NCBI GenBank assembly: GCA_963775225.1
Contig: CAVZHW010000006.1
Span: forward strand, 88,329-152,328
Source of the DNA: an uncultured Chloroflexia bacterium
Lineage (GTDB): Bacteria; Chloroflexota; Limnocylindria; Limnocylindrales; CSP1-4
DNA length: 64,000 nt
Reading direction: 5' to 3'
Below, piece by piece: positions 21,679 to 45,472 of the stretch. Numbering within the stretch: position 1 is the first letter of the stretch; every line of letters begins with the position of its first letter. The notes beneath the pieces are model-generated. The model did not search any database. It had not been told where the DNA came from and saw nothing but the letters and a program-made list of their open reading frames with translations. Both the position numbers and the translations under genes were made by a program.

Positions 21679-21895
21679 TGATCGCTCACACGGGTCAAAC
21701 GTCCGCCGATCCGCTCGAGTGAAGGCAGCGGCCGTCCCCGATGCCAACCCAGACTGCCGGCCAGACTCGATTTGGCCTTACCAGCCACCGTTTATGCAGC
21801 GCTCGACGCATCTTCTGCCGCATCCGAGTGGATGGATGAATGCCCGGTCAGCGCCCGCCAACCGCTACCGGACGTTTGACCCGCCACACCGATCA
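21679..21895. repeat. 217-bp palindromic (REPIN/MITE-like) element, copy 1
   Basis: TGATCG-N7-GGGTCAAACGTCCG ... CGGACGTTTGACCC-N7-CGATCA: perfect 14-bp and 6-bp inverted repeats. Confidence 0.8.
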
Positions 21896-22618
21896 TTTCA
21901 TTGCCGGTAATCCTCCGGCGGCCTTCGCTTTCGGCCGCAGTGCCAAGTCACTGACGCCGTCGTCGAGCCTGCCGTCGCGGACGAGGACGTGGCGACTGAA
22001 GCGGTCGGCGATCGTCGGGTCGTGGGTCGCCACGACCAGGGCAAAGCCGTGCTCGGCCTGCAAGGTCGCCAGGAGATCGACGACCTGACGCGAGGTCTGC
22101 GAGTCAAGGTTGCCGGTCGGCTCGTCGGCCAGCACGAGCTGTGGGTCTGCGATAAGGGCGCGGCCAATGGCGACCCGCTGTTGCTCGCCGCCGGACAGCT
22201 CGCCCGGCCGATGCCGTAGCCGGTCGCCCAGGCCCAACTGGCCGAGCAGCTCCCGGGCGTGAGCGTCGAGGTCTCGCCGCGAGCGATACGGCACGAGCGG
22301 CAGCATCACGTTCTCCAGCGCGGACAGCGCCGGCACCAGGTGGAAGAGCTGGAAGACGAGCCCGATCCTTTCCCGCCGGACGTCGGCCCGCGCATCGTCC
22401 GATAGGCCACCCACGTCGCTGCCATCGAGCAGGACGCTGCCCTCTGTCGGCCGATCAAGCAGGCCCATCAGCGCCAGCAGCGTCGTCTTGCCCGCCCCGG
22501 ACGGCCCCAGCACCGCGATCTGCTCGCCGTGCGCCACCGCGAGATCAACGTGATCAAGTGCCACGACCGCCGTCGCGCCACTGCCGTACATGCGCGTCGC
22601 ATCAGTCAGTTGCAGCAT
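21893..22618 (-). CDS. ABC transporter ATP-binding protein (LolD/MacB-like)
   Basis: [29 protein letters not shown] and ATHD motifs; its TGA stop lies within the repeat end. Confidence 0.93.
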
Positions 22619-25600
22619 CGAGGACCTCCAGGGCGGACACAAGCTGGGCCAGGGTGTGCTCGAGGGCCGAGTTGTCGAGCTGGTCGGGGGTGTCGGCCGG
22701 GGTGCCAGTGTCAGTATTGAGACTCGTCGGCTCGCCCAGGTAGGCAGCGTCGATGCCGATCGCGAGGGCCGATGGGGCGATGACGCCGTCGAGGTGCACG
22801 TCGTCGGGCGGCGCGCCGGAGGTCAGCGCAGACAGCAGCGCGGCCGACGTGTCGGTCGCCGCCAGGTCGGCGGTTCGCGCTACCCAGTCGCCTGCGCCGT
22901 CGTCGAGGACGAGCGAGCCGAGAAGGGCTTGGCGTGTCGATGCCTCGTCGAGCGCGTCCGTCCAATGTTCACCAAGCACGGCGGCCAGCCGGCCGCCGAG
23001 CGGCCCAAGCTCGATGACCGGCGCCAGCGGCATCTTTTCGGTGGCGCGGCGCACGAGGCTCGACATCGTCCCCGGCTGGCTCAGATCGGCGAACGCGAGG
23101 CGCAACGGCAGATCGTAGGCGTGCGCCTTGGCGGCCAACTCGAGAGCGACCGCTATCGGCGCCGCGCTCTGGGCCGCCCCGGGACCTGTCGAGCCGACCG
23201 GCACGACCAGCAGCGGCGTCGCGTCTGCCGGTGAGCCGACTGTTGCCCACACGATCTCGCCGGCGGTCAGCCCGACGGATGCGGCGTGAGTTACGGCTGT
23301 CCACGCCTCGTCCGCGAGCGGCCTGACCGTCAGCACCGCGGTCGTCCCCTCCGAGCTGCAGCGGGACAGGGTGTCAAAGGGTCGCGTGGGGTCGTCGGCA
23401 TCGGACACCCGCAGCACCAGCAGCCCGACTGCGCAGTCGGGCTGGCTGAGCTCGCTCGCGGTAAAGGGAAGCGGAGCATCGGCCGTGAACTGCGGCGTCA
23501 CCGCGAGGCCGCCGCTGAACATCGCGCCAACGTCTATCGAATTGCCTGACGCGTCGAACCACTGTGGCATGAACGACAGGAACTCCTCGCTTGAGGCTGA
23601 GCCTCCGTGGGAGCGCACGAAGTCCGTGACGTAACGCAGCGTCCAATCGAAGCTCGCGTTGCCCGCCACTCGGTCGGCGTGGCCGGCGATCGCGTCGACA
23701 TGGCCAGCAAGCGCGATCGACTCTGCCGACGGCGGTGCGGGTGACGGAACTGGCACAAACGCATTTGGCGGGATGGCGGCCGGGGCGAGCACTCCGTAGC
23801 CGACGCCGGCACCGGTCACGAACATCGCCAGAACGACAATGACGGCCAGCGCAGCCCGCGACGCGAAGCCGGGTAGCGCGCCGGTCATGCCCTCGGCGGC
23901 GAGACCACGCGCCGGGTCGACGGCCAGCGCGAGGCGTGCCGGCAGGGCGGCGACGACGAGCGCAACGAGGCCACCGAGCACCACGGCCGCTGCGCCGAGA
24001 ACGACCAGCGCTGGCCACGGGAGACCGACCCAAGCGCCGACCGCGACGACAGGGATCACGGCGAGGAGACCGCCGGCGAAGGCCGGCAGGCCGGCCTCGA
24101 CCGACACGACGCTGGCGATAGCGCGGGCGCGCCAGCCGGTGGCGCGCAGCAGGGCGATCAGGCTGACGCGCCGCTCGACGGCCAGCACACCGGAGTCGAG
24201 CGCGATCGACGCCGCGGCGAACAACGCTGCCCCGGCGGCGAGCAGGTGGAACCAGCCCACGCGCAGCCACACCAGGCCGCCCAGCACTGTCGTGCGCAGC
24301 TCGCCGCCGTAGGCGACCTCGACCGCCGCGATGGTGCCCGCGACGAGGATCGCCAGCGCCAGGGCGATGGCAACTGCCAGCAGTCGGCGCGGTGCTTCGA
24401 AGCTGTTGCGCAGGCCCAGGCGGACGACACCCAGGCTCAGCCAGCGTCGCGGCTCGCCCACGACGCGCTCGCGCTGCCCGCGGTTGGTCAGTGCGGCAAG
24501 GCCAGCGGCGGCCATGTGCACACCGACGACTCCCAGCGCCGCGATGGGATACGCCAGCGGCGGTAGGTCGACGTCGGTGATGGCGTCGAATATCGCCAGC
24601 AGGATGACCGACAGGATCGCCGCGGCGAGGCCGAGCAGCAGCGCCTGGCTGACCAGCAGCCAGACCCGGCTCACTCGCCGCCAGCCGAGCTGGCCCAGGA
24701 TCTCGAGCCCGCGCCGCTGGTCATCGACGAGGAAGACCCCGAAGCTGCCCAAATACAGCAGCACGACCAGGCCCGCGCCGCCGAGCAGGAGGCCCGACAG
24801 GCCATCGGCGCCGGTCACGATTCGTGGCGCCTCGCCCAGCGTCGTCCAGCGCTCGCGAACGGTGCCCACGCCCGCGACGGCTACGTCGACGTCGACCGGC
24901 GAGCTACCGGCCACGACATCGACGTGCAGCCCGGTCCGATCGCGGATCGCCTGCGCCACCTGGGCGATGTGGTCGACCGCCGCCGGCGTGTAGGCGTCAA
25001 CGTCGGAGACGCGGACGCGGATGGCGTCGATGAACTGCGCACCGCGCAGCGCCTCGACCGTCTCGAGGTTGGTCAGGCCGATCGGCGGCAGCGGGTTGAG
25101 ACCGCCCGGGTTGAGCGAGACCGGCAGCGCCTGGTTGACCGGGTTGCCGCCGGCATCGGCAACGAGCTGCCGCGCCGGATCACCATAGACCCCCAGCGGG
25201 ACATAGTTGGTCGCGCCCGCGTAGCGCGCGGCAATAGCGTCGAGATCGTACGTGCCGAGCGAGTCGACGAGGAACGGATCGGGGACCGTGACCGCCAGCG
25301 GTCGGTACTGCACTAGCCCGTCGAGCAGGTCGCCAATTGTGCCCGCGTTCCATCCCTGCGGTGCGGCTGCGGCGATCGCCGGCTGAACGAGTTCGCTCCA
25401 CGTTCCGAGGTTGTCGAGGATGGGATGACCATCCGGAGTGCGGCCATAGGCCGTCTCGGAGGGCAACAGCAGGACGTTGCGCCCGTAGGCACCACCGCCG
25501 CCAACGTTCATGTTGGGCTGGATCGCGCCGTCATGGAACTCAACGAGGGTGACACGCAGGGGCTGGATCAGGTCGGAGAACGCCTTCGTGTCGGATGCGA

Positions 25601-26582
25601 CGACCTGGGTCGTCTTGCCATTGGTAAAGCCCTGGACCACCGAATCCTCGGCCGCGAGCCAGTCGGTCAGCGATCCGTTGAACTTCGTCGTCCGGTGCAT
25701 CTCTTCGAGTGCGGCGCCCAGCCCAGCGACATCCACGCCGTCGACGAGCGAGATCGACATCGTCACCTGCCCCGGCAGGGACACGTGTGCCGGCGTGATC
25801 ACAGGCACGCGAGTCGCTGTCTCCTGGGCGTTCTGATCAAACGTCGTCGTCAACCCGCGTTGCAGATTCTGGCCCGTTACGTATTCGCTGAGGCCGATCA
25901 GTCGGTCTTCCTCAACCGGGTCGATGCCGACGATATCGCCCCATGTCGAGGGCAGCTCAATCTTCAGGTCTGCATTGGCCGGCTGCCCCGGCTGCGTGCC
26001 CCACCCGCCCGACCCGACCGCACCAGCGATCACCGCGGCTAGTCTGAACTCACCCTGGTAGTCCCAATTGACGCCGACGTAGCCGTTCGCCCGAATCTGC
26101 GTGCCATCGGGCAGGCTGACCTCCTCCGTGATCTTCACCAGTTGTCCCCGGTCAGGCGTCGGGAATGACGCGTCGATGGCGACGTCATCGGGCCTCATCC
26201 AGCCGAGTGTGGCCAGCGGCGCGGCGACCTCGACGCCTGGGATCTGCTGGATCGCGTGCCATTGCGCGCGCGTGATGCCCGAGGAACGTACTGCGAGAAA
26301 GTCGGATGGGACGACCTGCTTGCCGTCGATCGTGTACGTCGTCGCGTCGGTCGGCTGAACGAGCAGGTCGTAGGCGCCGCGCCATCCGGCGTCGACGGTC
26401 TGGCCGACGATCGTGCGGCTGGTCACCGCGGCGGTCGCAAGCGATGCCGCGGCCAGGGCGATCGAGACCGAGCCGGCGGCAAGAATGATCGCCCGCGGCT
26501 GGTTGCTGACCAGGATCCGCCAGCCAACCCGAAGCGGGCCCCAGAAGCGGGTCCTCATCGGCGGCCGGCGAGGCCGAGTCAT
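22602..26582 (-). CDS. very large FtsX/MacB-type ABC permease with C-terminal M28-peptidase-like domain
   Basis: TM1, large extracytoplasmic domain (GAYDLLV.P, I.QIPGVEVAAP, DAIRVRV, TGLHVDVVAGSS), two FtsX blocks (ILGQLGW, LLRATGW), then a soluble M28-like tail. Confidence 0.8.
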   Translation of the reverse strand: MTRPRRPPMRTRFWGPLRVGWRILVSNQPRAIILAAGSVSIALAAASLATAAVTSRTIVGQTVDAGWRGAYDLLVQPTDATTYTIDGKQVVPSDFLAVRSSGITRAQWHAIQQIPGVEVAAPLATLGWMRPDDVAIDASFPTPDRGQLVKITEEVSLPDGTQIRANGYVGVNWDYQGEFRLAAVIAGAVGSGGWGTQPGQPANADLKIELPSTWGDIVGIDPVEEDRLIGLSEYVTGQNLQRGLTTTFDQNAQETATRVPVITPAHVSLPGQVTMSISLVDGVDVAGLGAALEEMHRTTKFNGSLTDWLAAEDSVVQGFTNGKTTQVVASDTKAFSDLIQPLRVTLVEFHDGAIQPNMNVGGGGAYGRNVLLLPSETAYGRTPDGHPILDNLGTWSELVQPAIAAAAPQGWNAGTIGDLLDGLVQYRPLAVTVPDPFLVDSLGTYDLDAIAARYAGATNYVPLGVYGDPARQLVADAGGNPVNQALPVSLNPGGLNPLPPIGLTNLETVEALRGAQFIDAIRVRVSDVDAYTPAAVDHIAQVAQAIRDRTGLHVDVVAGSSPVDVDVAVAGVGTVRERWTTLGEAPRIVTGADGLSGLLLGGAGLVVLLYLGSFGVFLVDDQRRGLEILGQLGWRRVSRVWLLVSQALLLGLAAAILSVILLAIFDAITDVDLPPLAYPIAALGVVGVHMAAAGLAALTNRGQRERVVGEPRRWLSLGVVRLGLRNSFEAPRRLLAVAIALALAILVAGTIAAVEVAYGGELRTTVLGGLVWLRVGWFHLLAAGAALFAAASIALDSGVLAVERRVSLIALLRATGWRARAIASVVSVEAGLPAFAGGLLAVIPVVAVGAWVGLPWPALVVLGAAAVVLGGLVALVVAALPARLALAVDPARGLAAEGMTGALPGFASRAALAVIVVLAMFVTGAGVGYGVLAPAAIPPNAFVPVPSPAPPSAESIALAGHVDAIAGHADRVAGNASFDWTLRYVTDFVRSHGGSASSEEFLSFMPQWFDASGNSIDVGAMFSGGLAVTPQFTADAPLPFTASELSQPDCAVGLLVLRVSDADDPTRPFDTLSRCSSEGTTAVLTVRPLADEAWTAVTHAASVGLTAGEIVWATVGSPADATPLLVVPVGSTGPGAAQSAAPIAVALELAAKAHAYDLPLRLAFADLSQPGTMSSLVRRATEKMPLAPVIELGPLGGRLAAVLGEHWTDALDEASTRQALLGSLVLDDGAGDWVARTADLAATDTSAALLSALTSGAPPDDVHLDGVIAPSALAIGIDAAYLGEPTSLNTDTGTPADTPDQLDNSALEHTLAQLVSALEVLDAATD

Positions 26583-26586
26583 GGCG

Positions 26587-26826
26587 TCAAGGCAGATAGC
26601 CGGGCAGCGTGGTCAGGATGCGCTCGGTGCCGGAATCTCTCAAGCCGGGAAAGCCGACCGGGATCAACATGAACCCCGACGCCACGGCCCAAATGCCCAG
26701 CGTCACCGCGACGACGAGGAAGACAGTGAGGAAGATCGCCAGCATCTTGCACGTCCGGTCACGTCGTGGCTGGTCTTCGTGGATTGCCATCCCTCGAAGC
26801 ATGACCACGGATTCGCCGGATGGCAT
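26587..26826 (-). CDS. small single-TM hypothetical protein
   Basis: Hydrophobic segment MLAIFLTVFLVVAVTLGIWAVA; GAGG upstream; ends 4 nt before the permease ATG. Start uncertain. Confidence 0.5.
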   Translation of the reverse strand: MPSGESVVMLRGMAIHEDQPRRDRTCKMLAIFLTVFLVVAVTLGIWAVASGFMLIPVGFPGLRDSGTERILTTLPGYLP

Positions 26827-26861
26827 CCGACGAACCTCTGAAAAACATCAGCAATCTCGAG

Positions 26862-27323
26862 CTAGTGAGCAGATATGCCATGCGTTGGAACGATCTCAGG
26901 GGATCCTCCAAACATCCTCGGCGACTGCGGCCCTGTGAATGGGCGCGCAAAGGTCTGCGGCTGCGAGACGAGGACGAGCGCCAGGACTGTCACAGCGAGG
27001 AGGACCGCCAGGCCGAGCAAGACGATGGCGGAGGCCACATACCGATGTGCCTCGGAGGGCGGCGTTGCCAACGGAGCGACGTTGCTGTCCCGCAGCGCTG
27101 CGATCAGCGCCGCCCGGCCGTCAACGCCGAACTTCGCGTAGATGTGGGTCAGATGGCTTCGAACTGTCGACTCGCTCAGGCACAGCCGCGTCGCGATCTC
27201 TCGGTTACGGGCTCCTGTCGTCAGCACCCGCAGGACGTTGCGCTCGGCGCGGGTCAGTTCATCGAGTGGGTCCGGTCGCTCGCCAGTGGCCACAGATGCG
27301 TTATCGAGCGATAGCTCCGCCAT
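26862..27323 (-). CDS. LuxR-type HTH regulator with C-terminal transmembrane helix
   Basis: LTRAERNVL...GARNREIA.RL.LSESTVRSHLTHIYAKFGV, then a hydrophobic helix (VASAIVLLGLAVLLAVTVLALVLV). Confidence 0.8.
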   Translation of the reverse strand: MAELSLDNASVATGERPDPLDELTRAERNVLRVLTTGARNREIATRLCLSESTVRSHLTHIYAKFGVDGRAALIAALRDSNVAPLATPPSEAHRYVASAIVLLGLAVLLAVTVLALVLVSQPQTFARPFTGPQSPRMFGGSPEIVPTHGISAH

Positions 27324-28771: not shown

Positions 28772-28987
28772 CGATCGGTCACACAGGTCAATCGTCCGCC
28801 GGGCCGCCAGTCGATCCCGCGATGGCCTCGATTGCTGCCCGAGGCTGGAGCGTCAAGGCGCGGATTGCGTCACCCGGCGCCGCATATGCACCGGTCGATG
28901 CATGCTTCGACGTGTCCGACTGCATCAGTGAATGCCAATTCAGCGGCAGACGGCCGACACCGGACACTTGATCGGTCACACCGATCA
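28772..28987. repeat. 216-bp palindromic element, copy 2
   Basis: Left end 26/29 identical to copy 1; 28885-28987 versus 21793-21895 is 73/103 identical without gaps (hand count). Confidence 0.8.
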
Positions 28988-39454: not shown

Positions 39455-42298
39455 TCAGGTCTCGGTGAGGGCGGCCTCGAGCCCGTCGCGGATCGCGTCG
39501 AGCGCCTGCGCCAGAGCCTCACGCCGTTGCCCGCGCGCCTGGGCCATCTCCGGCCGGCCCCCGCCGCGGCCGTCGATCAGCGGCGCACCGATGCTGACCA
39601 GCGCCCCTGCCGACACGCCGCGCGCAACGAGGTCGTCGCTGACCGTTACGAACAGCTGCGGCTCGTCGGCGTCAAGACCCAGCGCAATGACGCCGTCGCC
39701 GAGCTCCGCGCGCACGGCGCGGGCGAAGCCCTGCAGCTCCTTCATCGAATCGAACTCAGCTGAGTAGCCCACGTAGTGCGCGCCGTCGACCGACTGCGCG
39801 CCCTGCGCGAGCAGCCCCGGGTTGCCCGCGGTACGGCCGGCGCGCAGCCGCCGCTCCAACTCGCGATTGCGTTCCTGAAGCTCATGGATGCGCTCGGGCA
39901 GCGCGTCGACGTCACGCGCGCCGATCTCGTCGGCGAGCTGGTCGAGCAGTGCCAACCGGGACTGCGTGTGGGCGTCGGCCGCCTCGCCGGTGACGGCCTC
40001 GATGCGGCGCATGCCGCTGCCGATCGAGTGCTCCCCGGTGATGTAGAAGCCGCCGACCTGGCCGGTGGCGGCGCAGTGCGTGCCGCCGCACAGCTCGCGG
40101 CTATAGCCGTCGACGAACAGGACGCGCACCTGCTCGCCGTATTTCTCGTCGAAGAACGCGTCGGCGCCCTCGGCGATCGCCTCGGCCATGGTCATGTAAC
40201 GCGGCGTAACGGTCCTGTTGTCGCGGATCACGCCGCGCACCTCGGCCTCGATGGCGCGTTTCTCATCGGCGGTCAGGGCGCGATCCAGCGGAAAGTCGAA
40301 GCGCAGGTAGTCGGGCGCCACCAGCGAACCCGCCTGCCGGGCAGACTCGCCGACGTTGTTGCGCAGCGCGCGATGCAGCAGGTGAGTGGCAGTGTGATTG
40401 CGCATCGTGCCTGCGCGGCGTGAGGCATCGACCTCGGCTGCCAGCTCGTCGCCGACCGTGACGCGGCGCAGCAGCTGGCCGCGGTGCACGATCACGCCCG
40501 CCACCGGCCGCTGCGTGTCCTCGACCTCGAACACGATCTCGCCGGTTGGGTCGCGCAGTACCCCGTGGTCACCCACCTGGCCGCCGCCTTCGGCATAAAA
40601 CGGCGTCTGGTCGAGCACGATCTCGGCCTCCGCCCCGGCTGGAACTCGCAGCTCCGCCTCCGCGACCGGCGCCAGCTCCTCGTAGGCAATGCCGTCGCGC
40701 AGGATGGCGACAACCCGGCCCTTCGCCGTCGTCGTCTCGTAACCCAGGAAGCGCGCCCCAGCTGGCTTGGTTGAGACCGTGGCGTCCAATGCTCCGCCGG
40801 TCCCGGCCGCCGTCCCGGCGCCCACCCGCGTCGCGACCTGGTCGTAGAGCGCGAGCATCTCGGCGTGGCGAGCCAGTTCGGCCTTGCGGCCACCGCGACT
40901 CCGCTCGCGCTGCTCGGCGAGAGCCTCGTCGAAGCCGGCGCGGTCAACGCGCACGCCGTACTCGGTCGCCAGCTCGGAGGTCAAGTCGATGGGGAAGCCG
41001 TAGGTGTCGTGCAGGCGGAAGGCGACGTCGCCGGGCAGGACCGGAGCATCGGGCCGGAGGTCTTCCACCCGGCGGCCGACCGTCCGCTCGGCCGAAGTGA
41101 TGGCGATGAGCGCCTCCTCGAAGTGGACCACCCCGGCATCCAGCGTGCGCTCGAACTGGCGCTCCTCGGCGGCGATGACGCCGGCGATCTGAGTGCGCCG
41201 TTCGTCGAGGTACGGGTAGGCACCGACCATCGTCTCGACCACCACGTCCGAAAGGGTGGCCAGGAACGGGTCGTGCCAGCCGAGCAGCCGGCCGTGCCGC
41301 ACCGCGCGGCGCAGGATACGGCGCATGACGTAGCCGCGCCCCTCGTTGGCGGGCCGGATGCCGTCGGCCGCAAGGAAGGTCAGTGCGCGGGCGTGGTCGG
41401 CGATGACCTGGTAGCTGAAGCGCTCCTGCTCGAACGTTTCCGGGTCGTGGCCGAGCAGGCCGCGCATGTACTCGTGAATGGGCGTGAACAGGTCGGTGTC
41501 GTAGTTGGTCGGCACTCCCTGCAGCACACTCGCCAGACGCTCGAAGCCCATGCCCGTGTCCACGCTCTTGAAGGGCAACGGCAGGCGTCGCCCGTCGGCC
41601 TGCTGGTCAAACTCCATGAACACCAGGTTCCAGATCTCCAGCCAGCGCGGACAGTTCTCGGAGTGATCGGGCACGCAATGCGGCCCCTCGGAAAGGTGGG
41701 CACCGCGGTCGAAGTGGATCTCGCTGCACGGTCCGCACGGCCCCGTGTCGGCCATGCGCCAGAAGTTGTGATCGTCGCCCCTGTCCACGTCGCCCCACAC
41801 GGCCATCCGCTCGGGCGGCATGCCCACCTCGTGCCAGTAGCTGCGCGCATCCTCGTCGTCCTTGTAGGTCGTCGCACCGAGACGTTCGAAGGGGATGCCG
41901 TAGGTGGTCGTCAGCAACTCGACTGCCCAACCGATCGCCTCGCGCTTGAAGTAGTCGCCGAAGCTCCAGTTGCCGAGCATCTCGAAGAAGGTGTGGTGGC
42001 GCGTGGTCCGGCCGACCTCCTCGAAATCATTGTGCTTGCCCGCCACGCGCAGGCAGCGTTGGTAGTCGACCGCACGCTTGTAGCCGCGCTGCTCGCGTCC
42101 GGTCAGCACATCCTTGAACTGGACCATGCCCGAGTTGGCGAAGAGCAGCGTCGGATCGTCGGCCGGCACGAGGCTGGCGCTGGGCACCACCTCGTGACCG
42201 CGCTCGGCAAAGAAGTCGATGAAGCGCCGGCGGATGTCGGCGGCCGGCATCGGTTTGATCGGCGCGCCGCGGCCCTCTCCGATGGTTTCCTCGGGCAT
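39455..42298 (-). CDS. alaS: alanine--tRNA ligase
   Basis: DPTLLF.NSGM, HHTFFEMLGN, GPCGPCSE, DTGMG.ER, HTATH, ELCGGTH and GGG..EMAQ motifs. Confidence 0.97.
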   Translation of the reverse strand: MPEETIGEGRGAPIKPMPAADIRRRFIDFFAERGHEVVPSASLVPADDPTLLFANSGMVQFKDVLTGREQRGYKRAVDYQRCLRVAGKHNDFEEVGRTTRHHTFFEMLGNWSFGDYFKREAIGWAVELLTTTYGIPFERLGATTYKDDEDARSYWHEVGMPPERMAVWGDVDRGDDHNFWRMADTGPCGPCSEIHFDRGAHLSEGPHCVPDHSENCPRWLEIWNLVFMEFDQQADGRRLPLPFKSVDTGMGFERLASVLQGVPTNYDTDLFTPIHEYMRGLLGHDPETFEQERFSYQVIADHARALTFLAADGIRPANEGRGYVMRRILRRAVRHGRLLGWHDPFLATLSDVVVETMVGAYPYLDERRTQIAGVIAAEERQFERTLDAGVVHFEEALIAITSAERTVGRRVEDLRPDAPVLPGDVAFRLHDTYGFPIDLTSELATEYGVRVDRAGFDEALAEQRERSRGGRKAELARHAEMLALYDQVATRVGAGTAAGTGGALDATVSTKPAGARFLGYETTTAKGRVVAILRDGIAYEELAPVAEAELRVPAGAEAEIVLDQTPFYAEGGGQVGDHGVLRDPTGEIVFEVEDTQRPVAGVIVHRGQLLRRVTVGDELAAEVDASRRAGTMRNHTATHLLHRALRNNVGESARQAGSLVAPDYLRFDFPLDRALTADEKRAIEAEVRGVIRDNRTVTPRYMTMAEAIAEGADAFFDEKYGEQVRVLFVDGYSRELCGGTHCAATGQVGGFYITGEHSIGSGMRRIEAVTGEAADAHTQSRLALLDQLADEIGARDVDALPERIHELQERNRELERRLRAGRTAGNPGLLAQGAQSVDGAHYVGYSAEFDSMKELQGFARAVRAELGDGVIALGLDADEPQLFVTVSDDLVARGVSAGALVSIGAPLIDGRGGGRPEMAQARGQRREALAQALDAIRDGLEAALTET

Positions 42299-42344: not shown

Positions 42345-42542
42345 TCGTGCATCCGACCCATCAACCGTCGGCCAAAGACGCCAATCACGGCTCTCCGTTC
42401 GATCTTGGTCGTGATCCCCCGGCTCAACCGACTTTCGATACCTGTACAGACCACCCATCAAGTGCCCTTCGAGGCCGCGCTCGACCCTCGCCCATCGGGC
42501 GCCGGCAGTGCACAACGGACACTTGATCGATCACGCCCATCG
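42345..42542. repeat. degenerate copy 4 of the 217-bp element, with a nested left end
   Basis: Left TCGTGC-N7-CCATCAACCGTCGG; internal CCATCAAGTGCCC (42455); right CGGACACTTGATCG-N7-CCATCG. Confidence 0.6.
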
Positions 42543-42582
42543 ACACCGGCCGGGCGCGCCCATCAACCCTGGCCGGGCGCGC

Positions 42583-43251
42583 CTAGACCAGGACAACACC
42601 CGAACCTGGGATAGGGCGACCGGCCCTAAGCGCGGCAAGGATCTGCCTCGGCGATGTCGAGTATCGCTGGCCCAGCGCGTCGCGGAACTGGTCGGCCAGC
42701 TGCCGGTTGTGCGCACTGTCCGACAGGACGATGACTATCTCGTCCGCGCCGCCGTCCCTTTCCCGCTCGCGGACGCGCCGAACCAGCGCCTGCACATCCC
42801 GGATCCGAGTCTCGACCTCGACTCCTATCCGCAGGTGCTCAAGGCGCAGCAGCATGTCCCATGCTCGCTGATCGCCCGGCGTCGGCAGTAAGACCTCGCG
42901 AAAGACCCTATAGGGCGGTGCGGCAACGTTCCGCAGGAATCGACCTGCCGTCCTTTGCTGGCCGGCATCACGAATGGCGTCTCCGAACTCGCTCAGCCCG
43001 GCGCTCATCTCGAGGCCAAGAACGGACGCAATTTGTGCAAGGCGCGATATCGAAACAGTCGGAAGATCGTAGCTCTCCAGCCGACTGACCTCCGACTGCG
43101 TCCAGCCGATTTCCTTGGCAAGCGCCCGCTGGCTCACGCCTCGCGTCTGTCGCCTTGTGCGCAGCTCGTGAATCAGCCTCCGCACGAGGGCATCACCTTT
43201 GCGCCGCCCGCGCTCCTTCCGAGTCTCCCGCGTTCCCACGCCAGACAGCAT
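42583..43251 (-). CDS. XRE-family HTH fused to a PD-(D/E)xK-like nuclease domain
   Basis: RRQTRGVSQRALAKEIGWTQSEVSRLE (XRE HTH); REV...GDQRAWDMLL...IGVEVETRIRD restriction-endonuclease-like core. Confidence 0.72.
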   Translation of the reverse strand: MLSGVGTRETRKERGRRKGDALVRRLIHELRTRRQTRGVSQRALAKEIGWTQSEVSRLESYDLPTVSISRLAQIASVLGLEMSAGLSEFGDAIRDAGQQRTAGRFLRNVAAPPYRVFREVLLPTPGDQRAWDMLLRLEHLRIGVEVETRIRDVQALVRRVRERERDGGADEIVIVLSDSAHNRQLADQFRDALGQRYSTSPRQILAALRAGRPIPGSGVVLV

Positions 43252-43338
43252 GAGCACGGACGCTTCACACGCGCTTATCTGCCACTTGGCCAGCCATACC
43301 CGGACGAACCAGGGCGCGACTCGAACTCATCCCTGGGG

Positions 43339-43555
43339 TGATGGGCCAGGCCGATCAAGCGTCGGTCGAGCGCCGCCAAGCTCCCCTCTCCGGCTGGCAC
43401 CAACTTCGACTTGAGCCGCCCAGCCCGCAGCTGGCCCCTCCTGGCTCAGACAGAACCCACCGAAAGGACCGGAAGAGGCTCGGGCCGGGCCGGATCGGGG
43501 CAGCGGCACCCCAGCTCACCCGCTATGACGGACGCTTGATCGTCCTCAACCATCA
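43339..43555. repeat. 217-bp palindromic element, copy 3
   Basis: TGATGG-N7-CGATCAAGCGTC ... GACGCTTGATCG-N7-CCATCA; same length and spacing as copy 1, with compensatory substitutions. Confidence 0.78.
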
Positions 43556-43642
43556 GCACGAGCTCAACCTTCAGCACGAGCTCGCCTGCGGAAGGATTCG
43601 ACCTGCGGATCGGGAAGCGTGGGCCGCCGTAACATGAGGGAC

Positions 43643-45472
43643 ATGTCGGGCGAATCTGTCGGGCTGACGTGCCCACGCTGCGGAGCATCGGCGCCAGCCG
43701 ACGCCCGCTTTTGCATGACCTGCGGCCTGCCGCTTGGTAGCGGGAACGAGGCTGACGGCGCGCGCCAGGAACGCATTGCCGCGAACGCGCCCGCGCCGCT
43801 GGTCGAGAAGATGCGCGCGGCCAAGCTGACCGGCGAGCGCAAGCCCGTCACCGCGCTGTTCGCGGACGTGGTCGGCTCGACCACGCTGGCGGAGCGGATG
43901 GATCCCGAAGACTGGACCCAGATCATCAACGCCGCCTTCGACCTGATGTCGAAGGCGGTCTTCCGCTACGAGGGCACCATCGCGCAGCTGCAGGGCGACG
44001 CCATGCTCGCCTTCTTCGGCGCGCCCGTGGCGCACGAGGACGATCCCGAGCGCGCGGTGCGCGCGGCGCTCGACATGGTCGCCGCGACGGACGAATTTGC
44101 GCGCGAGCTGAAGCGCTCGCAGGGCATCGAATTCCGCATCCGGGCGGGCATCAACAGCGGTCCGGTGATCGTCGGCAACGTGGGCTCTGACCTGCGCTAC
44201 GAGTACACGGCGCTGGGCGACGCCATGAACGTCGCCGCGCGCGTCCAGACCAGCGCCGAGCCGGGCACGGTGGTGATCACCGCCAACACGCACCGCTTCA
44301 TCGCGAGCGTGTTCGATTTCGAGGACCTGGGCGAGAAAGAGCTCAAGGGCAAGTCGGAGCCCGTGCAGGTCTACCGCGTGCTGGGATTGCGCGAGGCGCC
44401 GGGCCCGCGGCGCGGCCTCGAATCGGTCGGCCTTTCGAGCCCGCTGGTCGGTCGGGAGGAGGAACTCGAGCGGTTGACGTCCCTGTACCAGGTGGTGCAC
44501 GCCGGCCGGGGGCGGATCGGGGTGATCATCGGCGAGCCGGGCATCGGCAAATCGCGGTTGCTGGCGGAGGTGCGCGCCGCAATCTCGACCGAAGACCAGC
44601 CGCGCTGGATCGAAGGCCGCTGCGTCACCTACGGAAGGACTGTTCCCTACCACCTAGTGCTCGACGGCGTCCGTTCGCTGCTAAGCCTGCGGCTGGCCGC
44701 GTCGGACGCCGAGACGCGCGCCGCGTTGCACGAGCAGCTGACCAGCCTACTGCCGGCCGACGAGGCTGCCGACGTGGAGCCGCCGCTGGCCAGCCTTCTC
44801 GCGCTACCTCTCACGCAAACCGAGGGGGATCTCCTCCAGCTCGAGCCAGACCGCCTCCAGGGACGCTACGTGGCCGCCGTTCACCGCGTTCTGCGCACCC
44901 TGGCCGCCCAAGGCCCGATCGTGGTCGTCTGCGAGGACATCCACTGGGCCGACCCGGCATCGGTGGACGTGCTGCTCAAGCTTCTGCCGCTGCTCACGCC
45001 ACTGCCGGTGCTGGTGCTCTTCGTGGGCCGCGCCGAGACCGATGCGCCAGGCTGGCGCCTGGTCAGCCACGCCCAAGCCACGTACGGCGATGCCCTCACC
45101 GAGGTTCGCCTGCGGCCGCTGACGGAGGCGGACAGCCGGACGTTGGTCGCCAATCTGCTCGAGATCGAATCGCTGCCCGAGGCGGTACGCACCAACATCC
45201 TCGCCCGCGCCGAGGGCAACCCCTTCTTCGTCGAGGAGGTCATCCGCATGTTCATCGAGCGTGGCGCGATCGCGCGCAGCGGCGATCGCTGGATGGCAAA
45301 CGAGAAGATCGCGGCCGTGGAGATCCCGGAGACACTCCACAGCCTGCTGCTGGCACGCATCGACCAGTTGCCCGACGAGGCCAAGCGCAGCCTGCGTGTC
45401 GCCTCGGTCATCGGACGGCAGTTCCCGGTGCGCGTCCTCGAGCGCGTCCTGGCGATCCCGGGGGACGGTTAG
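43643..45472 (+). CDS. zinc-ribbon + class III adenylate/guanylate cyclase + STAND AAA ATPase (N-terminal part)
   Basis: CPRCG...FCMTCG; ERK.VT.LFADVVGST, GDAML..FGAP.AHEDD..RA, GD.MN.AAR; GEPGIGKSRL, EDIHWAD, EGNPFF.EE. Confidence 0.9.
   Translation: MSGESVGLTCPRCGASAPADARFCMTCGLPLGSGNEADGARQERIAANAPAPLVEKMRAAKLTGERKPVTALFADVVGSTTLAERMDPEDWTQIINAAFDLMSKAVFRYEGTIAQLQGDAMLAFFGAPVAHEDDPERAVRAALDMVAATDEFARELKRSQGIEFRIRAGINSGPVIVGNVGSDLRYEYTALGDAMNVAARVQTSAEPGTVVITANTHRFIASVFDFEDLGEKELKGKSEPVQVYRVLGLREAPGPRRGLESVGLSSPLVGREEELERLTSLYQVVHAGRGRIGVIIGEPGIGKSRLLAEVRAAISTEDQPRWIEGRCVTYGRTVPYHLVLDGVRSLLSLRLAASDAETRAALHEQLTSLLPADEAADVEPPLASLLALPLTQTEGDLLQLEPDRLQGRYVAAVHRVLRTLAAQGPIVVVCEDIHWADPASVDVLLKLLPLLTPLPVLVLFVGRAETDAPGWRLVSHAQATYGDALTEVRLRPLTEADSRTLVANLLEIESLPEAVRTNILARAEGNPFFVEEVIRMFIERGAIARSGDRWMANEKIAAVEIPETLHSLLLARIDQLPDEAKRSLRVASVIGRQFPVRVLERVLAIPGDG

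Follow-up and report, generated by a model that had tools for sequence, protein, structure and literature searches.

We describe a gene, and an associated family of small repeat elements, in a 64,000-nucleotide stretch of contig CAVZHW010000006.1 (hereafter the window). The DNA derives from an uncultured soil bacterium, with an assembly of 1.44 Mb that is 68% complete. The gene encodes a protein with an XRE-type helix-turn-helix (HTH) and, according to structure prediction, a nuclease domain. On each side it is flanked by an element bounded by inverted arms. We put the chances at about even that the gene product is a site-specific DNA-binding endonuclease and the cognate partner of these elements. 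Judged from its sequence, each element is a unit of ~190-215 bp, with two 26-nt arms, akin to a miniature inverted-repeat transposable element (MITE) or a REPIN (a doublet of repetitive extragenic palindromic, REP, sequences). Comparisons among related genomes support a link between the repeats and the HTH-nuclease family: arms are enriched beside homologous genes, arm types are genome-specific, and arm type matches the recognition helix. Furthermore, arm spacing is quantised at 10.5 bp. This suggests two-site binding on double-stranded DNA, unlike the hairpins of REP sequences and their REP-associated tyrosine transposases (RAYTs). We infer binding, synapsis, cleavage and mobilisation.

Paired arms: structure, distribution and spacing

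A repeat search of the window identified a four-copy, 30-nt family, with copies ending at 21894, 28986, 42541 and 43554. Elements were delimited by alignment, and by anchoring on the repeat core, giving paired inverted arms of 26 nt (Table 1). Each arm consists of a 7-3-7 palindrome, here GATCGGT-nnn-ACCGATC, followed by AA-nn-GTCCG. The right arm of element c28 has a perfect palindrome (GATCGGT-CAC-ACCGATC). An earlier inspection of the same DNA, referred to below as the sequence-only reading, had placed the gene between two members of a repeat family. The elements c42 and c43 agree with its coordinates to within 2 nt. Note that their kinship is borne out by the arms and not by the interiors, which do not align; arms are all that these two have in common with each other, or with the other elements. 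Only c21 and c28 are alike throughout, being 68% identical end to end.

A position weight matrix (PWM) was built from eight arms. It scores the arms of c43 at 33.3 (43341-43366) and 34.7 (43528-43553), and their cores are complementary at 15 of 16 positions. Element c42 has one weak arm (42347-42372; score 22.5), one strong arm (42515-42540; 34.2) and a third, inner, arm-like site at 42449-42467, which pairs in the predicted fold. The orthologous spacer in genome G009 (locus L002) has three arms of the same type as c42. The outermost inverted arms, 42347-42372 and 43528-43553, bound an element-gene-element cassette of ~1.2 kb. All matrix matches of at least 30 in the assembly fall in the four window elements. 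Elsewhere in the assembly there is one further pair, the fifth element of Table 1, and a few single arms, so that the family numbers five elements in this incomplete genome. A strict paired pattern matched four times in the 1.44 Mb; the reversed control had no match across 32 genomes of the genus.

The elements belong to no described RNA family, T-box leaders included. At the gathering score, Rfam returned a single tRNA in the window and, at E ≤ 1, nothing between 42250 and 43700. Element c43 can form a long hairpin that folds better than its shuffles (z = -2.7), and c28 and c42 do not. The structured-RNA reading was dropped because, among the folds tried, only that of c43 beat its shuffles.

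To describe how arms and gene are associated, we used a genus set of 32 genomes (Limnocylindria, Chloroflexota), with flank tests over 30 gene loci. The gene family is present in all 32, with 1-8 matches in each, some of them broken. Hence, none of them bears the repeats without the gene; genomes with the repeats and no gene were what the sequence-only reading had named as counting against it. Inverted arms matching at least 16 of 18 positions are present in 8 of 59 gene flanks, compared with none of 60 distal control segments. At a threshold of 15 of 18, the figures are 23 of 59 and 10 of 60. Strict elements of the arm type found in the window (type A) number 13 in the genus. Nine are solo and four have a family gene at a distance of no more than 100 nt (c42, c43, G009:C1:984021 and G016:C8:491045), where we estimate that ~0.05 would be expected by chance. 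The exact type-A core is beside homologs at just 2 of 68 loci; this test is too narrow because arm types vary between genomes. Note that one genome, G004, is unpublished. It supplies 1 of the 13 strict elements, one gene-less site between alaS and the cyclase gene (see below), and some single-arm matches.

Arm types differ between genomes, and do so along with the recognition helix (helix 3) of the adjacent gene. In the genome of the window, type A flanks the gene and forms the three solo copies. Type B belongs to G002, a single-contig genome. Here, the palindrome GTGAyACGC...GCGTATCAC, then CTGTCCG, is found upstream of the best gene copy, P0095. The P0095 protein is 52% identical to that of the window and five helix positions differ (SQAHLWRIE versus TQSEVSRLE). 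The exact type-B 12-mer occurs nine times in G002, making four pairs, and three of these arms are beside P0095. Each of the other 31 genomes has between zero and two copies, all unpaired, and the reversed control is absent from all 32. Type C, with the arm ACTGATACGTCCG, is found as an exact match seven times in G008, four times in G016, three times in G033 and twice in G011; the remaining 28 genomes have none. Counting all type-C arms, G008 and G033 have 7-12. In these two genomes type C flanks gene copies L012 and L010, both with helix 3 WSQSH(M/V)SRLER, and is found as well in solo elements, located on other contigs or at a distance of hundreds of kb.

When helix 3 is tabulated against adjacent arms, the same helix goes with the same arms across genomes, and different helices go with different arms. 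In this table the palindromes co-vary with the protein, the kind of pattern that the sequence-only reading had suggested looking for. Helix 3 is hypervariable, with ~70 distinct strings among ~92 loci. Within the closer subfamily the (C/T)GTCCG tail is constant while the palindrome varies. As a separate observation, the unpaired exact type-B 12-mers total 28, over 19 other genomes; this is above our chance expectation, and the reversed control gave none.

Spacing of the arms was expressed as the inner distance, between the inner GTCSG tails of a pair. For 34 hand-compiled elements, one of which (inner distance 154) is from G004, the best period is 10.55 bp with a Rayleigh R of 0.78. Using only the 22 unique inner distances, R is 0.73 (nominal p ~8e-6, a significance that related copies inflate). 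With one distance per arm type (n = 14) R is 0.71, and 20 pairs with flanks matching at least 9 of 10 positions give 0.70 at 10.5 bp. No periodicity is apparent for control tails: the four with at least eight pairs have R values of 0.08-0.47. Three more control tails had one or two pairs, and no R. Four arm groups share one phase, of 3.3-4.6 bp. Hence, GTCCG centres are close to whole helical turns apart. A hairpin or cruciform would leave loop length free, and the phasing therefore argues for binding at two sites on double-stranded DNA.

Comparison of relatives indicates that the elements are insertion polymorphisms. The fifth element is in carB (L070:7557-11114, - strand, 1185 aa), where an insert of ~190 nt occupies a linker, in frame, with both arms translated. 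We fetched 14 CarB loci and aligned the 13 that span the region. The linker is short, with no insert, in 6 of the 13; a homologous arm-encoding insert is present in four, and three have other inserts. The type A-like insert is carried by the genome of the window (G000), G009, G013 and G042. The linker of G002 contains an insert of that genome's own arm type, B, with a frame change. Note that this G002 insert (L151, G002:C1:403900-404270) includes an 18-nt triple tandem repeat, and that carB is two open frames there, of 566 and 727 aa.

Two more solo elements were compared with G006. Element c28 is missing from this genome and the spacer between the sigma factor gene and dxs is unrelated sequence. 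At the position of c21, G006 has an orthologous element that directly adjoins the orf210-sigma-dxs genes. In the window, a block encoding an ABC ATPase, a long FtsX-like permease and a LuxR-type regulator (21893-27323) is next to c21, and G006 lacks it. Hence, there is an element at the border of a gene block that has been inserted or deleted. The G006 sigma-dxs spacer (L138:13175-13577) itself contains imperfect tandem copies of a ~35-nt unit, GTCAGGCGGAGCGGGTC....

The cassette also appears to come and go at its site beside alaS. We surveyed this site at 30 genus loci, with spacers estimated from tblastn coordinates. An HTH-nuclease gene is directly upstream of alaS at 8 of the 30, and the cyclase gene is the direct neighbour at ~13. 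Two loci have a ~1 kb spacer with no assigned gene, four have other contexts, and three are uninformative. The spacer between alaS and the cyclase gene is bare in G002 and G040 (90-110 nt), contains a solo type-C element in G033 and G008, and contains the type-A cassette here and in G009. As in the carB linker, the arm type at this site is that of the genome concerned. A 522-nt contig from a soil run (X1), 9-14% diverged, links the 5' end of alaS (position 42253) to the cyclase gene (43643); where the window has the 1389-nt cassette, this contig has 156 other letters. This is weak evidence because it is a single contig from another organism. The sequence-only reading had offered, as an alternative, a selfish gene inserted into the repeats, and presence or absence of the cassette at the alaS site fits that proposal.

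The HTH-nuclease gene and its product

The gene (Table 1) is part of an open reading frame that extends over 42583..43257 on the - strand, and could alternatively start from the GTG at 43257. The alanyl-tRNA synthetase gene alaS (39455-42298) follows downstream, in the same orientation. Upstream, and divergent, is a gene encoding zinc-ribbon, cyclase and AAA domains (43619-45472), referred to here as the cyclase gene. The same neighbours are found in the window and at loci L001-L003. No methyltransferase or other partner gene is present in this conserved neighbourhood; note that the search covered the neighbourhood alone and the genome was not searched for orphan methyltransferases. A consensus scan for promoters and terminators between 42250 and 43700 gave no sites.

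The protein is a member of the XRE family (Cro/C1-type) of HTH DNA-binding proteins, as proposed from sequence at the outset. Pfam models HTH_31 (E 3e-10, 40.7 bits, cut-off 27) and HTH_3 (E 1e-9, 38.5 bits, cut-off 23) match residues 30-84. An AlphaFold2 model of the whole protein, with a mean predicted local distance difference test (pLDDT) score of 91.5, has HTH helices at residues 41-48 and 52-59. The second, around TQSEVSRL, is the recognition helix. Structurally, the HTH resembles XRE repressors and the C-proteins of restriction-modification systems (Z 8-10, best 9.9). Ahead of the HTH, residues 1-22 (43251-43185) form a strongly basic tail, with consensus TRETRxxRGRRRG, that is conserved family-wide. 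On sequence grounds, this tail might serve as an arm that contacts DNA, perhaps at the constant GTCCG.

Structure prediction gives us confidence that the C-terminal domain has a PD-(D/E)xK nuclease fold, in line with the sequence-only reading. Modelled alone, the domain has a pLDDT of 91.7 and a predicted template-modelling score of 0.86. The predicted core is alpha-beta-beta-beta-alpha-beta, with helices at 96-106 and 153-166 and strands at 115-121, 130-137, 140-147 and 171-176. VIA-align matched the model to AF1548 (Z 9.6; 102 residues aligned, root-mean-square deviation 2.7), NucS (8.6), SPO1766 (8.3) and XisH (8.1). Lower matches include the nuclease domains of Can2/Card1, many restriction enzymes, Vsr, Hjc and TnsA. 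Of the 50 structure matches listed, nearly all are nucleases of this fold. The best Foldseek matches are the R2 RLE, AF1548, BstEII, Bax1 and Can2, with weak E-values of 2e-3 and above. TnsA scores only Z 5.7. Sequence models are less informative. Matches to Pfam, NCBIfam, PADLOC and PHROGs models are confined to the HTH, and the C-terminal 130 residues are left uncovered. In a Pfam comparison bearing on kinship with the TnsA and Rpn-type recombination nucleases, the sole match of the domain at E ≤ 10 is a weak one to NaeI (E 0.049). A search of PDB sequences with the domain profile found nothing below E 0.5.

Conserved residues of the C-terminal domain are E119, D127, R129, D132, E/D145, E147 and R149. 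Across 27 diverse C-terminal domains, and 48 full-length proteins, the invariant residues are D127, R129 and D132; conservation is at least 90% for E119 and E147, and position 145 is E or D. The REV, AWD and VEVET motifs of the earlier reading are all present. Its spacing of D-x11-ExE was wrong, and should be D132-x12-E145-x-E147. It was right to place glutamate at the usual lysine position, where at least 90% of sequences have E147. The protein therefore departs from the catalytic D...(D/E)-x-K motif and has an E-x-E variant. At least one restriction enzyme with such an acidic residue in place of lysine (E-x-E, BamHI-like) is active. Conservation within the protein is highest in the nuclease core (entropy of 1.0 bits, against 1.7-1.8 bits for the HTH domain), and helix-3 positions 50, 54, 55 and 58 are the most variable of the family.

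Among 8000 candidates scored, 338 are full-length homologs at E ≤ 1e-3. The C-terminal domain alone matches 699 cluster representatives, almost all ~217 aa long and with the same architecture. In GTDB genomes there are 68 loci, nearly all under Limnocylindria or Chloroflexota titles.

A second, weakly related, HTH-nuclease gene is present in the same genome (L069:2426-3346, equivalent to C2:224925-225845). Its 306-aa product is 33% identical to the window protein over 140 aa, keeps a canonical D...ExK motif (IEVK) and has a (GGGVPS)n tail. The gene directly follows an IS21-type insertion sequence (L069:200-2353) with 52-nt inverted ends. On its 3' side is a 284-nt tandem duplication carrying an arm-like site and a 12-nt minisatellite. 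We looked on contig C2 for a repeat family belonging to this second gene, and found the IS21 element and minisatellites, with no clear paired arms.

Table 1. Coordinates of the gene, its predicted domains and the paired-arm elements
Feature	Position	Strand	Length	Context or basis
HTH-nuclease gene	42583..43251	-	222 aa	from in-frame ATG at 43251; open reading frame list
XRE-type HTH domain	43000..43164	-		residues 30-84; Pfam HTH_31, HTH_3
PD-(D/E)xK-fold (restriction-endonuclease-like) domain, predicted	42586..42963	-		residues 97-222; predicted models
Element c21	21681-21893		213 nt	solo; between tlyA-like methyltransferase gene and ABC-transporter block
Element c28	28774-28985		212 nt	solo; between ECF (extracytoplasmic function) sigma-factor gene and dxs
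Element c42	42347-42540		194 nt	between HTH-nuclease stop codon and alaS start
Element c43	43341-43553		213 nt	between HTH-nuclease start codon and divergent cyclase gene
Fifth element	C2:268590-268781 (L070:9591-9782), other contig		192 nt	solo; in carB

What the protein might do at the arms

If the gene product is an endonuclease partnered with the elements, the following sequence of events can be proposed. HTH dimers would read the palindrome, the part of the arm that varies between genomes along with the recognition helix. The two arms of an element would then meet on double-stranded DNA, with the intervening 99-235 bp looped out and the spacing kept to whole turns. Next, the conserved nuclease domain would cut or nick at, or near, the conserved GTCCG tail. 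Cutting and repair could excise, copy or homogenise the elements, as well as the 1.2-kb element-gene-element cassette. Such events might account for the spread and loss of elements, and for the uniformity of arms within a genome. In its fullest form, this would be bacterial selfish or mobile DNA of a new class. Here, an HTH-guided PD-(D/E)xK endonuclease would synapse two helically phased inverted sites on double-stranded DNA, and so excise, copy or homogenise ~200-bp elements and its own cassette. Its specificity would be reprogrammed in each lineage by co-evolution of helix and palindrome, making it a prokaryotic counterpart of phased excision of internal eliminated sequences (IESs) whose DNA specificity is modular and has been diversified in nature. 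We advance this fuller version tentatively, as less likely than not.

Several observations weigh against an endonuclease partnered with the elements. With the canonical lysine replaced (E/D145-x-E147), catalysis is not assured. Within the arm, the conserved GTCCG lies on the inner side, whereas the conserved cleavage site is outermost at cut-and-paste transposon termini. No target-site duplication is definable at the carB, c28 or alaS sites; none can be read because filled and empty sites diverge. Copy number is low, with five elements here and one or two strict ones in those other genus genomes that have any. Palindromes beside homologs, which the sequence-only reading called for, are enriched as described above, and yet 22 of the 30 genus loci have no arms at the 16-of-18 threshold. 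Of the 7 gene copies that G002 has, evident arms accompany only 1-2. In G006, the closest relative, the gene is intact but has a single arm on its upstream side and none downstream. When upstream and downstream flanks were compared by BLAST, 6 of 61 loci were positive (above all 201 controls), all in a distant subfamily. The window's own flanks were negative (22.3 bits, below the 95th percentile of controls). Note that comparing flanks in this way is insensitive to similarity confined to the arms. Finally, related genomes are not independent, so the statistics for covariation and phasing overstate significance, and part of the match between helix and arm can be due to shared descent of the gene plus its flanks.

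The main rival to a partnered endonuclease is a looping repressor, or architectural factor. In this case, the HTH would bind arms as paired operators and the nuclease-like domain would be non-catalytic, serving only to oligomerise or to sense a ligand. The elements would be regulatory modules for neighbouring genes, and for the gene's own promoter. Helically phased paired sites are the classic signature of looping repressors such as those of lac, ara and gal. The proposal accounts for the phasing and also for promoter-proximal sites: c43 is 90 nt upstream of the start codon of the HTH-nuclease gene, and all four window elements are upstream of genes on the same strand. Low copy number, loss of the canonical lysine, and the likeness of the HTH to repressors and restriction-modification controller proteins (Z 8-10) are also in its favour. 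However, it leaves unexplained the ~190-nt in-frame carB insertion, present in some relatives and absent from others. Nor does it readily accommodate a cassette and solo elements that come and go at fixed sites, or 1-8 gene matches per genome, some broken. Moreover, no part of the protein is conserved better than the acidic residues of its nuclease site, and this is unexpected for a mere scaffold. We find a looping regulator rather doubtful overall.

Two further explanations seem to us improbable, and equally so. The elements might be ordinary MITEs, moved by an unrelated transposase, with the HTH-nuclease gene as cargo or as a preferred landing site. Small size, terminal inverted repeats and polymorphic presence all fit, and the genome does have insertion sequences, such as the IS21-type element at L069:200-2353. 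However, no insertion sequence end in the assembly has an arm-like site, and the IS21 element has 52-nt inverted repeats that bear no relation to the arms. Furthermore, arm types follow the recognition helix of the adjacent gene across genomes, and cargo would not behave in this way. Alternatively, the gene could stand alone as a restriction-like, defence or addiction gene, with its HTH serving for self-repression. The flanking palindromes would then be control boxes, and the dispersed copies decayed sites of cassette insertion. A controller-like HTH joined to a nuclease would suit such a role, as would a dispensable cassette, multiple and variable copies per genome, and a recognition helix that is hypervariable as in specificity-diversifying systems. 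Against this, the conserved alaS/cyclase neighbourhood contains no methyltransferase or partner gene, and PADLOC matches the HTH part only. In addition, solo elements retain both arms at phased spacing, which random decay would not preserve.

Relation to known systems

The nearest parallel is the REPIN-RAYT system, in which REP doublets are associated with a RAYT (PMC3116915, PMC3337134, bioRxiv 10.1101/2022.05.22.493013). The sequence-only reading drew this analogy. It stands for the layout, and does not extend to a Y1 transposase, to copy number or to recognition of hairpins. As in those accounts of REPIN-RAYT, an enzyme gene is flanked by repeats on which it is thought to act, and the same repeats are dispersed in the genome. 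This layout, gene-flanking and dispersed, recurs with other arm types in G002, G008 and G033. In both cases the repeats are inverted doublets, mostly intergenic, and gene and repeats persist in a lineage with a genome-specific repeat type. The differences are fourfold. The enzyme here combines an HTH with a predicted PD-(D/E)xK domain, rather than being an IS200/IS605-like Y1/HUH transposase. Each genome has 1-12 copies of the element, compared with tens to hundreds. The spacer is 99-235 bp and helically quantised, implying double-stranded two-site binding, rather than single-strand hairpins. Lastly, the gene is multi-copy in many genomes.

Prokaryotic MITEs are also short non-coding elements, with terminal inverted repeats, and their presence varies between relatives (PMC10969869). 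They include Rickettsia palindromic elements, which insert in frame into genes (PMC10969869); similarly, one copy here is an in-frame insertion in the housekeeping gene carB. The 1.2-kb cassette has inverted arms at its ends, and its gene is not a known transposase. Unlike prokaryotic MITEs, the elements have no target-site duplication that we could find at the diverged sites, and no transposase of the insertion sequence type in the assembly shares their ends. Furthermore, the candidate partner is a restriction-type nuclease, and the arms are bipartite, with a variable palindrome and a constant tail.

A likeness to the IESs of Paramecium concerns the length pattern only. These are excised by PiggyMac, a domesticated transposase, and the ~10-bp periodicity of their lengths is taken to mean that double-stranded DNA must loop between enzyme molecules bound at the two ends (PMC3408717). 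The elements described here are likewise short insertions, some inside genes, with helical-turn periodicity of length. On the description given in that source, the IESs differ in being eukaryotic, developmentally programmed, present in tens of thousands of copies and dependent on a DDE transposase; excision is a feature of the Paramecium sequences.

Enzyme type invites a comparison from another direction. Type IIE and IIF restriction endonucleases have the PD-(D/E)xK fold and use two recognition sites. The same fold is predicted here, along with a possible need for two sites held by looping. Unlike such enzymes, this one has no methyltransferase nearby, in the neighbourhood checked, and recognition would fall to a separate XRE HTH domain. 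In addition, its sites are dispersed paired elements that also flank the gene itself.

A narrow literature search found no description of such a partnership between an HTH-nuclease and palindromic repeats, so we regard "not described" as provisional. The family comprises dozens of natural helix and palindrome pairs, a ready source of data on which a DNA-recognition code, or programmable nucleases, could be based. If the proposed partnership is real, it would account for some oddities of Limnocylindria genomes, namely housekeeping genes with in-frame inserts, cassettes that appear and disappear at fixed sites, and repeats at the borders of gene blocks. Together, the sequence comparisons point to a partnership of repeats with an enzyme whose type is not known from systems of this kind. 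Compared with REPIN-RAYT, this would be a second, mechanistically different, way for bacteria to keep small palindromic repeat families alive, with a restriction-type nuclease, and its detachable reading head, acting on looped double-stranded DNA.

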